Shown here piece by piece: positions 15,984 to 19,523 of a stretch of 64,000 nucleotides of DNA (positions are counted from its first letter, which is position 1; each line of letters begins with the position of its first letter). Location: contig CAKOWY010000008.1 in assembly GCA_934129895.1 (NCBI GenBank), forward strand, positions 298 through 64,297. The letters are read 5' to 3'. The notes beneath the pieces are model-generated. The model saw nothing but the letters and a program-made list of their open reading frames with translations. It was not told the DNA's origin and ran no database searches. Source of the stretch: an uncultured Clostridia bacterium (GTDB taxonomy: Bacteria; Bacillota; Clostridia; TANB77; CAG-508). The position numbers were made by a program, and so were the translations under genes.

Positions 15984-16550
15984 ATGAAAAAGACAAAAAA
16001 GAATTATGCAATTATAGTATTAATTGTTTTACTTGTTGCTATCTCAATAGGATATTCAGCATTTAGTTCATCATTAAATATCAGTGGAACAGCAACGGGA
16101 AGTGGAAAATGGGATGTAAAATTCACAAGTGCAGTATTAAAGGATGCATCTACATTAGAACTAGAAACAAGTAAGGAACATGGAGATGATCCAACAATTA
16201 CTCCAATGGGGGATTATGTAACTTTTAATGTAAAATTGTCATATCCAGGTGATGCTGTTGTGTTAGAAACAACAATCACAAATGAAGGAACAATAGCAGC
16301 TAAATTAGAAGATATTACAGTTACAGGAACTGGTTCTGATAAAATAATAGTTACATCATCAACTCCAACACAAGACGAAGTATTAAATGCTAATGGTGGA
16401 ACATGTACATCTCAATTCTTAATTCAATGGGATCCAGAGGATAAAATACCATCAACAACAGACTTAACAAAAGATTTAAAAGTAACATTTAAATACGTTC
16501 AAAATGTAAATAAAACTGTATCACAACCAACACATACAGATGGTAATTAA
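15984..16550 (+). CDS. Secreted TasA/camelysin-like protein with a SipW-cognate-type signal peptide
   Basis: N-terminus MKKTKKNYAIIVLIVLLVAISIGYSAFSSSLNISGTATGS resembles the TasA/CalY A-F-(N/S)-D/S...SGT signal region. A paralogue lies at 18894. Confidence 0.6.
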   Translation: MKKTKKNYAIIVLIVLLVAISIGYSAFSSSLNISGTATGSGKWDVKFTSAVLKDASTLELETSKEHGDDPTITPMGDYVTFNVKLSYPGDAVVLETTITNEGTIAAKLEDITVTGTGSDKIIVTSSTPTQDEVLNANGGTCTSQFLIQWDPEDKIPSTTDLTKDLKVTFKYVQNVNKTVSQPTHTDGN

Positions 16551-16634
16551 AAGTCTAAAAGGTAATGAATTTTTCATTACCTTTTAGAAAATTTTTAATA
16601 ATCCTAATATATAGATAAAAGAAAAGGAAAAAAT

Positions 16635-17810
16635 ATGCAAAAGTCAAAAAAAGCAACAATAATAATTATTATTACTATGCTTGTATATGGATTTTTTGCT
16701 ACATTTAAATTAATAAAAGAAATAAATATTTTGTATTTGTATATTATAAATCCATTATTTTGGTTATTGCTTGCTGGTTTTCTATATTTGACTTTAGGAA
16801 AAAGTATAGAAAACAAAAAAATGAAAAAATCAATAATACAATATACAATAGTCGCAATTTTAACATATATACTTATTTATATGATTTCTGGAATAGTAGT
16901 TACATTTGGAAAGAATCCTTATGACACTACAGTTTTTGGAATTATTACAAATATTTGGATGTTTGGAGTAGCAATTGTATCAAAAGAATATATAAGATAT
17001 AAATTAATAGATAATGTATATGAAAAAGATAAAACAACAATATCTATATTGATATCAATTGTATATGTAACGATTGATATAGATATTAGCAGATTCATTG
17101 GAAATAGTGTTGCAACATATTCTTGCATAAGATATATTGTGCAAAATATACTGCCAGAAATTACAACTAATGTTGTATTTTCTTATACCGCTAGATATGG
17201 AAATTGGATACCAGGAGTATTATATAAATTATGTACAAATATATATTATTGGATATCACCAATAATTCCAAATACACCATGGGTAATGACAGCAATTGTA
17301 GATACAACTATTCCAGTAATATTGTTTTTATATATAAGATATGAAAAAAATAAATTAGATATATTTAGAACTAAAGAGAATATTATAAATTCAGATCCAA
17401 GAAATGTAATTCCACTAGTAATTGCAATAATTCTTGCAATTTGGTTTGCAATAGGGATATTTCCTATAAAACCAGTTGCAATAGCTTCTGGAAGTATGGA
17501 AAAAGAATTATATGTAGGAGATATTGCTATAATAAAAAAATGTAATGCCAATGATGTTAATGTTGGTGATATTATAGAATATCAAATGGATGGATATACA
17601 GTAATACATAGAATTATAGAAAAGAAACAAAAAAATGGAGAATTCTTATTTATAACAAAAGGGGATAATAATCAGATGGCAGATAGTGAAAACGTAAAAG
17701 AAAAACAATTAATAGGTAAGGTAATTTTTAAAATAAAATACCTTGGATATCCAGCTATATGGTTACATCTTATTCAAGAAGAAGAGGCAATGGTAAATGT
17801 TGAAACATAA
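16635..17810 (+). CDS. sipW: Type-I signal peptidase of the SipW (archaeal/eukaryotic) type, fused to a ~270-aa N-terminal polytopic membrane domain
   Basis: C-terminal part IASGSMEKELYVGDIAII...GDIIEY...ITKGDNN matches the SipW catalytic SGSME box. The N-terminal 270 aa carry about seven hydrophobic helices. Confidence 0.65.
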   Translation: MQKSKKATIIIIITMLVYGFFATFKLIKEINILYLYIINPLFWLLLAGFLYLTLGKSIENKKMKKSIIQYTIVAILTYILIYMISGIVVTFGKNPYDTTVFGIITNIWMFGVAIVSKEYIRYKLIDNVYEKDKTTISILISIVYVTIDIDISRFIGNSVATYSCIRYIVQNILPEITTNVVFSYTARYGNWIPGVLYKLCTNIYYWISPIIPNTPWVMTAIVDTTIPVILFLYIRYEKNKLDIFRTKENIINSDPRNVIPLVIAIILAIWFAIGIFPIKPVAIASGSMEKELYVGDIAIIKKCNANDVNVGDIIEYQMDGYTVIHRIIEKKQKNGEFLFITKGDNNQMADSENVKEKQLIGKVIFKIKYLGYPAIWLHLIQEEEAMVNVET

Positions 17811-17827
17811 AAAGAAATGGAGGAAAA

Positions 17828-18883
17828 ATGAGTAAGGTCAAACAAAAAAATAAAATACGAAAATCAACAAAATATACATGTATTATTATTGCAATAGTTC
17901 TTATCGTTTTTTCTTTAAGTAATCTTCTAAATAATCTTTCTAAAGAAAATATGAAGAAAACAACAAAAGAAATTTATAACTATAAAAATACATTTAAATA
18001 TGATTATAAAGTTAATTTACAAGAAAATAGGTATATAACAGAAAAACAATTACAAGATAAAAATCTGGTTTATGTAACAGATTTAATAGACAATGTAGAT
18101 TTAAAATTAAACTATACTTATAATGGTAGTAAAGATTCAAATTTAAAATATACATATTCAATTATTGGAAAAACAAGAGTAGTATATACAAAAGATGGAA
18201 AAGAGCAAAAGATATTAGATGAAGATGAAGTTTTATTGGAAGAACAGACAGGAAGTGTAAATTCTGATAAAGTAGAAATTAGTAAAACAATTAATTTAGA
18301 TTTAAAAAAGAAAAATGAATTATTAAATGAATTTAAACAGAAAATGGGAATGTCAATTGATGCAAAATATACAGTATATTTAAAAACAAATGTATCTACG
18401 ACAATTGAAAATGAAAATGTAAATTCAACTTATACATCAACTGTTGATATAGATTTAGCTGAAAAAACAACAGAAATTAATGGTGATAATAATAAAGAAG
18501 ATATTCAATATATATCAAAAGAATATGAAGTAAATATAGCACAAAATAATATGTTGATATTTGTTGATATAGTTTGTTTAATTATAGCTATTGTTTTATT
18601 GAAATATGTATCTGGATTTAGAACAGCAAATAGGGTTAAAGATGAGTTTAGATTAGAATTAAATAGAATACTAAAAATTTGTCAGGACAAAATAGTACAA
18701 GTTAGTACAAGACCTGTGGATACACAGGAAAATATAGTAAATGTTAAGGATTTTGGCGAAATATTTAAAGTATCAGAAGAATTATTTAAACCAATATTAT
18801 ATTATTTTGATGATGAAGAGCAAGAAGCATTATTTAGTGTTGTTACAGGAAATGTTGTGTATAGATTTATATTGAAAAAATAA
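17828..18883 (+). CDS. Hypothetical membrane protein with two TM segments (residues ~15-35 and ~235-255)
   Basis: ORF immediately after sipW, with RBS ggagg. Confidence 0.5.
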   Translation: MSKVKQKNKIRKSTKYTCIIIAIVLIVFSLSNLLNNLSKENMKKTTKEIYNYKNTFKYDYKVNLQENRYITEKQLQDKNLVYVTDLIDNVDLKLNYTYNGSKDSNLKYTYSIIGKTRVVYTKDGKEQKILDEDEVLLEEQTGSVNSDKVEISKTINLDLKKKNELLNEFKQKMGMSIDAKYTVYLKTNVSTTIENENVNSTYTSTVDIDLAEKTTEINGDNNKEDIQYISKEYEVNIAQNNMLIFVDIVCLIIAIVLLKYVSGFRTANRVKDEFRLELNRILKICQDKIVQVSTRPVDTQENIVNVKDFGEIFKVSEELFKPILYYFDDEEQEALFSVVTGNVVYRFILKK

Positions 18884-18893
18884 TGGAGGAGAA

Positions 18894-19523
18894 ATGAAGA
18901 GTAAAATAAAAAGAAAGGTTAAAATAAATAATACAGTTTTTATAGTTTTATTATTGATAGTTATTTTACTTTTCATTTCTACATCATATTCATTGTGGTC
19001 AACAGATTTACAAATAAATGGAACAATTACAACTAATTATTCAGGAAAAAAATTACCGGTTGAATTGGAACCTTTAGGAAACGATAAAAACGGTGTTAAT
19101 AGATATACAAGTAATACAACATTAGAAGTAATTGGAGTGGAAATATATAAAGTAGTTGATGAAAAATATGAAAATAATACAATAACAACTACAATTAAGC
19201 AAACATATAAGCAAATTTTTTCTATTTTTAACGTAAAACCTGAAATTACATTAACAATTCCAAATAATACAAGTGATATGTTTGTGGATGGAAAAATTGA
19301 ACTAATAGAATACAATGATTCTAATAATATATTTCAAAATAGGACACATACTGTGTCTGAAACAATTGTAGAAGGAGCAACAGGGACGGTAAGTATTAGT
19401 GGACAATTGAGAGGAGACAAAGATGTAGCTACAAATACTTATTATAAATATAAAATAACTTATAATGTAAATGGGATAGAAAATATATTTTATTATAATA
19501 TAAATTTATTACCAATGGATTAA
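18894..19523 (+). CDS. Second secreted TasA-like protein with a SipW-cognate-type signal
   Basis: N-terminus ...IVILLFISTSYSLWSTDLQINGTITT parallels ...ISIGYSAFSSSLNISGTATG of the gene at 15984. Confidence 0.55.
   Translation: MKSKIKRKVKINNTVFIVLLLIVILLFISTSYSLWSTDLQINGTITTNYSGKKLPVELEPLGNDKNGVNRYTSNTTLEVIGVEIYKVVDEKYENNTITTTIKQTYKQIFSIFNVKPEITLTIPNNTSDMFVDGKIELIEYNDSNNIFQNRTHTVSETIVEGATGTVSISGQLRGDKDVATNTYYKYKITYNVNGIENIFYYNINLLPMD

Follow-up and report, generated by a model that had tools for sequence, protein, structure and literature searches.

A probable AbpX-like donor-strand fibre operon with a dedicated polytopic signal peptidase in uncultured gut Clostridia

A 64,000-nt stretch of DNA from an uncultured Clostridia bacterium (contig CAKOWY010000008.1 of assembly GCA_934129895.1, hereafter the window) contains a four-gene operon, with genes called here A to D. 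We read it, with a probability of roughly 0.7, as encoding an extracellular fibre system of the AbpX-like kind (TasA superfamily) in a spore-forming gut bacterium of the Clostridia, whose subunits would assemble by strand donation triggered by a dedicated peptidase. The four open reading frames (ORFs; Table 1) are co-oriented on the + strand with small intergenic gaps and span positions 15984-19523, exactly as called in an earlier reading of the same letters (the original prediction), which took them for a tapA-sipW-tasA-like module. We file the locus with AbpX instead because A matches AbpX, B is a polytopic peptidase of the SEC11 type and C is a DUF5305 protein. The finding is not conceptually new, as such bacterial abpX loci, with the same parts, are known from a preprint of January 2026 (bioRxiv 10.64898/2026.01.04.697558).

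The argument starts from the likeness of A to AbpX, a fibre subunit of Pyrodictium abyssi (PDB 9sj2/9rhp). When PDB sequences were searched with a profile of the A family (A1, 22 sequences), AbpX was the top match (9sj2_C, E 1.1e-5; 9rhp_A, E 1.3e-4), and a broader 98-sequence profile (A6) matched it at E 3.4e-7 over residues 3-143 of 163. Alignment of A1 with the AbpX precursor by hhalign (96.2% probability, E 2.4e-9) superposes ...AIGLTYA↓QWSETLSLSATISTGSLDVDIK of AbpX on ...AISIGYS↓AFSSSLNISGTATGSGKWDVKF of A, where the arrow marks the predicted cut, and brings F27, L31, I33, G35 and A37 of A opposite W2, L6, L8, A10 and I12 of AbpX. These are the AbpX residues that fill the groove of the neighbouring subunit in the fibre, which is held together by donor-strand complementation as seen by cryo-electron microscopy (cryo-EM; bioRxiv 10.64898/2026.01.04.697558). 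Predicted mature A has the same length as AbpX, 163 aa, and is likewise acidic, with a pI of 4.45 and 13.5% Asp+Glu as compared with a pI of ~4 and 14.6% for AbpX (bioRxiv 10.64898/2026.01.04.697558). The AlphaFold2 (AF2) model of A, with a predicted local distance difference test (pLDDT) score of 86.8, consists of a leader helix, an unstructured stretch that coincides with the conserved motif described below, and a core with seven main strands; monomer prediction of AbpX also leaves the donor strand unstructured or of low confidence (bioRxiv 10.64898/2026.01.04.697558). AbpX has been placed in the TasA superfamily, with homologues in Bacillota (bioRxiv 10.64898/2026.01.04.697558), and our profile comparisons indicate that the A family is a relative of AbpX within that superfamily.

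A second line of evidence is the N-terminal region that A has in common with D. The motif (G/S)Y(S/A)↓x(F/W)SxxLxIxGT stands behind the leaders of both proteins (residues 21-38 of A, SIGYSAFSSSLNISGTAT; residues 29-46 of D, STSYSLWSTDLQINGTIT), and a degenerate pattern of it matched only these two copies in the six frames of the window. As a single pairwise comparison the resemblance is marginal, with 9/18 residues identical and an E value of 0.039. At the level of families, A1 and the profile of the D family (A2, 26 sequences) align through the N-terminus with 98% probability (hhalign, E 1.4e-13); their consensus sequences over the motif are IGYAAFSxTLTINGTATG and SYSLWSTxLxINGTVTG, respectively. 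Once leader and donor strand are cut away (residues 1-43 in A, 1-51 in D), the probability drops to 9.6%. The common N-terminal region proposed in the original prediction is thus unique within the window and conserved in both families, while its further claim that the two proteins are paralogues had to be given up for their whole length and stands for leader and donor strand only: to judge from these profiles, A and D have a leader/donor-strand cassette in common, and not the whole protein.

Conservation within the A family follows the same boundary, as it reaches 0.71-0.78 over the first 47 residues (leader and strand) and 0.50 over the remainder. G-Y-A↓x-F is kept in 140 of the 144 closest relatives; at the second mature position, F stands in 21/21 of the A1 sequences and W in 24/26 of the A2 sequences. 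The hydrophobic segment, ~17-19 residues long (9-27 in A, 11-29 in D), is preceded by a Lys-rich N-terminus (MKKTKKN in A, MKSKIKRKVK in D) that lacks the RR (twin-arginine) motif. From the small-x-small site at the end of this segment, cleavage of A is predicted at GYS25↓A26, and that of D at SYS33↓L34. A type IV pilin leader was considered and rejected; the prepilin site G↓F/M-T-L-x-E is absent before the hydrophobic segment.

The two families to which these proteins had originally been likened did not materialize. Neither A nor D matched TIGR04088, the model for the SipW-cognate signal class, or Peptidase_M73 (PF12389), the TasA/camelysin family, in Pfam and NCBIfam scans even at E<=1, and only one of 58 A relatives matched Peptidase_M73, weakly (E 0.0031). 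No other model rose above noise for either protein. TasA itself, with a query sequence checked against PDB 8aur, stays below threshold: A1 aligns to it with 46% probability over 41 columns, in the PGD...N.G region only (hhalign), and A6 finds it among PDB sequences at E 0.069. By eye, ...GGTWA↓AFNDIK of TasA nevertheless looks like ...IGYS↓AFSSSL of A.

D carries the A-type leader and predicted donor strand on a different β-sandwich core. Its donor-strand residues are W35, L39, I41, G43 and I45, its predicted mature form has a pI of 4.84 and 11.9% D+E, and its AF2 model (pLDDT 86.8) shows a leader helix and a β-sandwich with residues 35-49 disordered. In the two AF2 monomers the motif has a pLDDT of ~70 in A and <50 in D, and both cores exceed 90. 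The D family is narrow, with 27 homologues.

The peptidase encoded between A and D, protein B, is of the endoplasmic reticulum (ER)/archaeal type. Its C-terminal ~130 residues score 99.5 bits against TIGR02228 (cut-off 51.85, E 1.7e-28) and are closest in the PDB to human SEC11C/SEC11A (E 1.9e-11), with the SGSME, HR (vIHRi) and KGDNN motifs aligned; the catalytic set is an intact Ser/His/Asp and not Ser/Lys. Against the Bacillus SipW equivalog NF046067, B reaches 61.1 bits where 190 are required. Ahead of the catalytic domain, hydropathy analysis gives seven clear and up to nine hydrophobic segments, and this N-terminal domain has no Pfam match at E<=10. We found 1,093 homologues of B, the best 120 of which are all full length (~390 aa) and 62-72% identical. 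Among the related loci described below, B is conserved far above the subunits (62-72% versus ~45-50% for A and ~47-57% for D). Protein C has a first transmembrane (TM) segment at ~16-34, an extracytoplasmic domain at ~35-242, a second TM segment at ~243-261 and a cytoplasmic tail. We propose, by analogy, that it is an accessory subunit of B. Such a role for DUF5305 proteins has been proposed for TafG and for AbpX loci (PMC11821415, PMC12337348, bioRxiv 10.64898/2026.01.04.697558), and in the literature that we searched DUF5305 is mentioned only in work on archaeal donor-strand fibres.

The presence of this peptidase bears on whether A and D are cleaved at all. They could instead be uncleaved type-II signal-anchored membrane proteins, with B processing other substrates, and the length and unusual conservation of the hydrophobic segment would fit such an arrangement. 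We find it hardly credible, as a small-x-small site (-3, -1) closes the segment in nearly all close relatives (G in 134/140, A in 136/140) and in every locus the gene for B is firmly linked to that for A. Moreover, in the Tat-fimbriae (Tafi) of Haloarcula, where the DUF5305 protein TafG accompanies the peptidase TafD, pilins are no longer processed and fimbriae no longer form once TafD is deleted (PMC11821415; also PMC12337348).

On the preferred reading, that of a donor-strand fibre, A as the major and D as the minor subunit would each start with Lys-rich residues and a signal anchor and be inserted by Sec. The polytopic domain of B would probably recognise the conserved leader within the membrane, and its catalytic domain, facing outward, would cut after G-Y-S25 of A and S-Y-S33 of D, probably assisted by C. 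Cleavage would free an amphipathic strand (F27-x-L31-x-I33-x-G35-x-A37 in A, W35-x-L39-x-I41-x-G43-x-I45 in D) able to enter the incomplete β-sandwich of the next subunit and so give a polymer without any chaperone. D may cap, nucleate or terminate the fibre, and a hairpin behind gene A would keep A above B, C and D in amount.

Chaperone-usher pili also complement an incomplete Ig-like (immunoglobulin-like) fold with a donor strand, and in them a hairpin after the major-subunit gene sets stoichiometry. They differ in that the strand is delivered by a chaperone, while here it would be unmasked by cleavage of the leader in a system that has no chaperone, usher or outer membrane. The closer parallel is with AbpX. 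The AbpX loci of both domains, for example that of Clostridium amylolyticum, encode a ten-TM signal peptidase I (SPase I), a DUF5305 'SPase accessory' and AbpX-like minor subunits (bioRxiv 10.64898/2026.01.04.697558), and the present locus likewise combines a polytopic SPase I (seven to nine segments in B versus the ten TM reported), a DUF5305 protein and a minor subunit. The cleavage and donor-strand signature x-Y-A↓x-(W/F)-S-x-T-L-x-L/I is also common to both. On the other hand, the core of D is unrelated, no SLH/LPXTG anchor, histidine kinase or c-di-GMP (cyclic di-GMP) gene lies nearby in the window, where the divergent gene U is found instead, and the host belongs to an uncultured lineage of gut Clostridia.

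With the Tafi fimbriae (TafA/TafE pilins), whose fibre is assembled by strand donation, the locus has in common small pilins, a dedicated SPase I and DUF5305. The enzymes of Tafi loci are better conserved than the structural subunits (PMC12337348), and in both systems the peptidase is the more conserved part. The Tafi pilins have Tat (twin-arginine) signals in contrast to the Lys-rich, Sec-type n-regions of A and D, and TafD has four TM segments with the peptidase N-terminal, whereas in B the peptidase is C-terminal and follows seven to nine. No sequence match was found between A or D and the Tafi pilins.

In the tapA-sipW-tasA operon of B. subtilis (TasA fibre, PDB 8aur), an ER/archaeal-type signal peptidase gene also adjoins the subunit genes, there is a major and a minor subunit, and the PGD...N.G strand motif is common to TasA and A; TasA subunits, according to Bohning et al. 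2022 as cited in PMC12337348, polymerise via an N-terminal donor strand exposed by cleavage. To this extent the comparison made in the original prediction is sound, since a dedicated peptidase of this type does stand beside TasA-superfamily subunits. It fails in detail: no TapA-like protein was detected and B is not a SipW equivalog, a TapA-named family giving no match for A to D in Pfam and NCBIfam, libraries in which the presence of a TapA model was not verified. The SipW-like peptidase it had recognised is real, but makes up only the C-terminal third of the 391-aa polytopic B, behind a fused domain of ~250 aa. Its two-TM protein is equally genuine and is the DUF5305 protein C, which together with the different gene order sets the locus apart from the Bacillus operon. 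What had been called unusual components, the polytopic peptidase and the DUF5305 protein, characterise loci of the AbpX/Tafi type and not the Bacillus operon.

The order A-B-C recurs in six other gut-Clostridia loci, four of which have A-B-C-D. The latter (L001-L004), obtained from a genome scan with the D family, all come from gut or faecal Clostridia metagenome-assembled genomes. In the two others (L005 and L007), obtained from B homologues, genes for a pilin, B and DUF5305 precede a fourth gene that varies. In L007, the fourth-position genes encode Flg_new repeats behind a leader of the D type (…SIGYSYWNTTLNIRGT…). Its counterpart in L005, 135 aa as called, lacks a leader and has a C-terminus like that of D (…NYNVNGETQSVVYRVIIRPPS); probably it is a homologue of D that is truncated or was called from a wrong start. 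A sortase and a surface protein ending in PKTG/LPKTG adjoin the core in L005 and L007, and none is present in the window. The A family is large: an exhaustive search with A1 returned 9,687 clusters (at 50% identity) when the limit was set at E<=1e-3; tightening it to E<=1e-10 leaves 4,637, and to E<=1e-30, 123. A itself is matched by nothing in Pfam or NCBIfam, and in this domain the 58 relatives that were sampled give only weak Pfam matches. In relatives of 300-1,100 aa, this leader and first domain stand in front of LRR_5, Flg_new, GLUG, DUF6273 or Invasin_D3, and adhesin domains behind an A-type leader are as expected of tip subunits.

Several observations weigh against a donor-strand fibre. 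Foldseek comparison of the A and D models with the PDB yields generic Ig-like sandwiches; for A, the TasA fibre ranked 40th (E 0.096; TMq 0.40) while AbpX was not listed in the PDB copy used, and for D the TasA fibre was absent. The core of D has no detectable kinship to A (see above) or to AbpX: its family profile A2 found nothing in the PDB and reached only 11% against AbpX. The structure models are of monomers only, so that polymerisation of A is what we infer, and the cleavage site of AbpX is itself predicted, not measured. No sortase (TLxTC) and no LPXTG-type sorting signal or cell-wall anchor was found in the six frames of the window. Finally, at donor-strand position 4, where AbpX has an acidic residue (E4), A has Ser29 and D has Thr37. 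In AbpX, E4 contributes to calcium binding, and polymerisation is calcium-dependent (bioRxiv 10.64898/2026.01.04.697558). No sequence of the two close families is acidic at this position (0/21 in A1, 0/26 in A2), as against 46/140 in the wider family, and the other calcium ligands of AbpX are mostly unalignable with A, the equivalent of D18 (D44) alone being kept. The calcium-clamp mechanism is doubtful here because position 4 is non-acidic in A, D and their close families, and if fibres form they probably do so without a clamp of the AbpX type.

These points raise the question whether A and D might be ordinary non-polymerising secreted or surface proteins, for instance adhesin-like proteins with an Ig fold, in which the motif serves the peptidase as a recognition site only. 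The generic Ig-like character of the cores would agree with this, as would the weak matches of relatives to the CARDB, DUF11, DUF7507 and HYDIN Ig families, the many A relatives that are long adhesin-type proteins and the fact that we deduce polymerisation rather than observe it. We nevertheless consider it unlikely. Conservation reaches ~13 residues past the cut, with a strict hydrophobic alternation that corresponds residue for residue to the strand in the AbpX cryo-EM structure. The strand is moreover unpaired in the monomer models, and the seven strands of A are one fewer than in an eight-strand jelly roll, which we count against a protein that does not polymerise.

Table 1. Positions of the operon, its control elements and other features mentioned in the text (window coordinates unless another locus is named).
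Feature	Position	Strand	Description
Gene A	15984-16550	+	188 aa; AbpX-like, predicted to be the major fibre subunit; residues 1-25 signal anchor, ~26-38 predicted donor strand, 45-173 β-sandwich core
Gene B	16635-17810	+	391 aa; dedicated signal peptidase; N-terminal ~250-aa polytopic domain and SPase I domain ~258-377
Gene C	17828-18883	+	351 aa; DUF5305 protein (PF17231), E 7.8e-20, above cut-off
Gene D	18894-19523	+	209 aa; predicted minor subunit (tip, nucleator or terminator); A-type leader and predicted donor strand, other β-sandwich core
Gene U	14770-15798	-	342 aa, divergent, cytoplasmic; helical N-terminal half, conserved C-terminal ~140 aa
Phased pentamers	15865-15901	+	putative operator/activator site; ATTAC at 15865, 15876 and 15887 (11-nt spacing), GTAAC at 15897
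Promoter candidate	15923-15951	+	sigma-70/SigA-like; TTGAAT, 17 nt, TAAAAT (consensus scan; consensus match only)
Stem-loop after A	16554-16588	+	16 bp, directly after the stop codon; ∆G of -21 kcal/mol (terminator scan)
Hairpin after D	19527-19547	+	operon end; intrinsic-terminator-like, with T-run (terminator scan)
Hairpin after A, L001	1782-1873		
Hairpin after A, L002	4666-4748		
Hairpin after A, L003	4617-4717		
Hairpin after A, L004	4674-4758		
Hairpin after A, L005	7900-8003		
Hairpin after A, L007	7913-8003		
Polysaccharide deacetylase gene	13994-14752		upstream flank (Pfam/NCBIfam scans)
MiaB/MtaB-type radical-SAM enzyme gene	19699-20934		downstream flank
Second ATTAC-N6-ATTAC site	38181-38220		third ATTAC 21 nt further
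ORF behind second site	38297-38782		161 aa, N-terminal TM
Following ORF	38801-39301		166 aa, polytopic
Fourth gene, L005	10472-10879		135 aa as called
Sortase and surface protein, L005	10907-13045		PKTG/LPKTG-ended surface protein
Sortase and surface protein, L007	13404-14988		PKTG/LPKTG-ended surface protein

Expression of the operon (G+C of the window ~27%) may be shaped by several elements around gene A, which is preceded by a strong ribosome binding site (RBS). In an intergenic alignment of five loci, the -10-like TAAAAT/TATAAT upstream of A is kept in position. The stem-loop after the A stop codon has a counterpart in each of the 7/7 loci, where a strong hairpin of 10-17 bp follows the major-subunit gene; its structure is kept while its sequence differs. 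It is probably a partial terminator or attenuator, or an mRNA stabiliser, setting an excess of the major subunit. A conserved (U)CCUAAUU motif follows the hairpin, ~30 nt ahead of the RBS of the peptidase gene.

Upstream of A lies the divergent gene U, whose product has no TM or hydrophobic segment by hydropathy. Its C-terminal ~140 residues are near-invariant (…LPYSxxExLLYLEQYP…NPxIIAACKTQ…), and profile searches gave no credible Pfam or PDB family, only coiled-coil noise and a sub-threshold TerL_ATPase match. Homologues with 43-57% identity occupy the same divergent position in L001, L002, L003 and L005, and in L004 and L007 a shorter U consisting of the C-terminal domain alone is found there. 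U, in full or as this domain, is divergent from the fibre operon in 7/7 loci; it may be a regulator of the module or its partner in the cytoplasm. Directly upstream of the -35-like element there is an array of phased ATTAC pentamers, and phased ATTAC/GTAAT pentamers are kept in the U-A intergenic alignment of five loci. The spaced pair ATTAC-N6-ATTAC has three matches in the window where 0.43 are expected, and the A genes of L002, L004 and L007 also have it upstream. From their arrangement the repeats look like an operator or activator array, with U as a candidate binder. The sole other site of this kind in the window precedes two ORFs, the first of which encodes a protein with an N-terminal TM (MKKNQNGITILGISIILIV...); no family was matched by either. 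They are divergent from spoVAC/AD/AE-like genes (SpoVAC, E 8.5e-42) and may be co-regulated with the fibre operon.

The spoVA genes in the window lead to another view of the fibre, which could, with the same assembly chemistry, be sporulation-associated (a spore appendage or coat-associated) and not part of a vegetative biofilm matrix. An ATTAC-repeat site like that of A adjoins these genes, a PdaB/PdaA-like polysaccharide deacetylase is encoded just upstream of the operon, and TasA of B. subtilis was originally deposited under the name 'Spore coat-associated protein N' (PDB 5of1). We hold this to be distinctly improbable, since the promoter candidate is SigA-like and unlike a sporulation-sigma promoter and the deacetylase scores far under the spore-specific equivalog cut-offs. 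The flanking genes also vary among the loci, and the neighbourhood thus gives no sporulation signal. Here they comprise, besides the deacetylase and the radical-SAM enzyme, adk, map and infA further downstream, and are housekeeping genes or unrelated to the operon.

Within the preferred reading of a donor-strand fibre, one may go further and imagine that the polytopic domain of B and the DUF5305 protein form a membrane assembly platform, which would bind the conserved TM leader and couple cleavage directly to strand insertion. The base of the fibre might then be anchored through the extracytoplasmic sandwich of DUF5305, and the phased ATTAC repeats would be the site at which U acts as dedicated regulator of the platform. 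We put forward this proposal, in all its parts together, as tentative and on balance doubtful. If true, it would amount to a Gram-positive 'usher-like' machine for nearly 10,000 clusters (50% identity) of gut-Firmicutes pilins and adhesins.

Donor-strand fibres of the TasA type form one of the main scaffolds in biofilms of Bacillus, and the structures of archaeal relatives (AbpA, Tafi, AbpX and threads) have been solved only recently. With four genes and neither anchors nor calcium-clamp residues, the present operon is a compact system in which to test the role of the polytopic peptidase, the role of DUF5305 and the need for calcium. Members of the A family are now annotated as hypothetical proteins; the locus and the size of the family indicate that AbpX-like fibres, and adhesins sharing their leader, are common in uncultured Clostridia of the human and animal gut.

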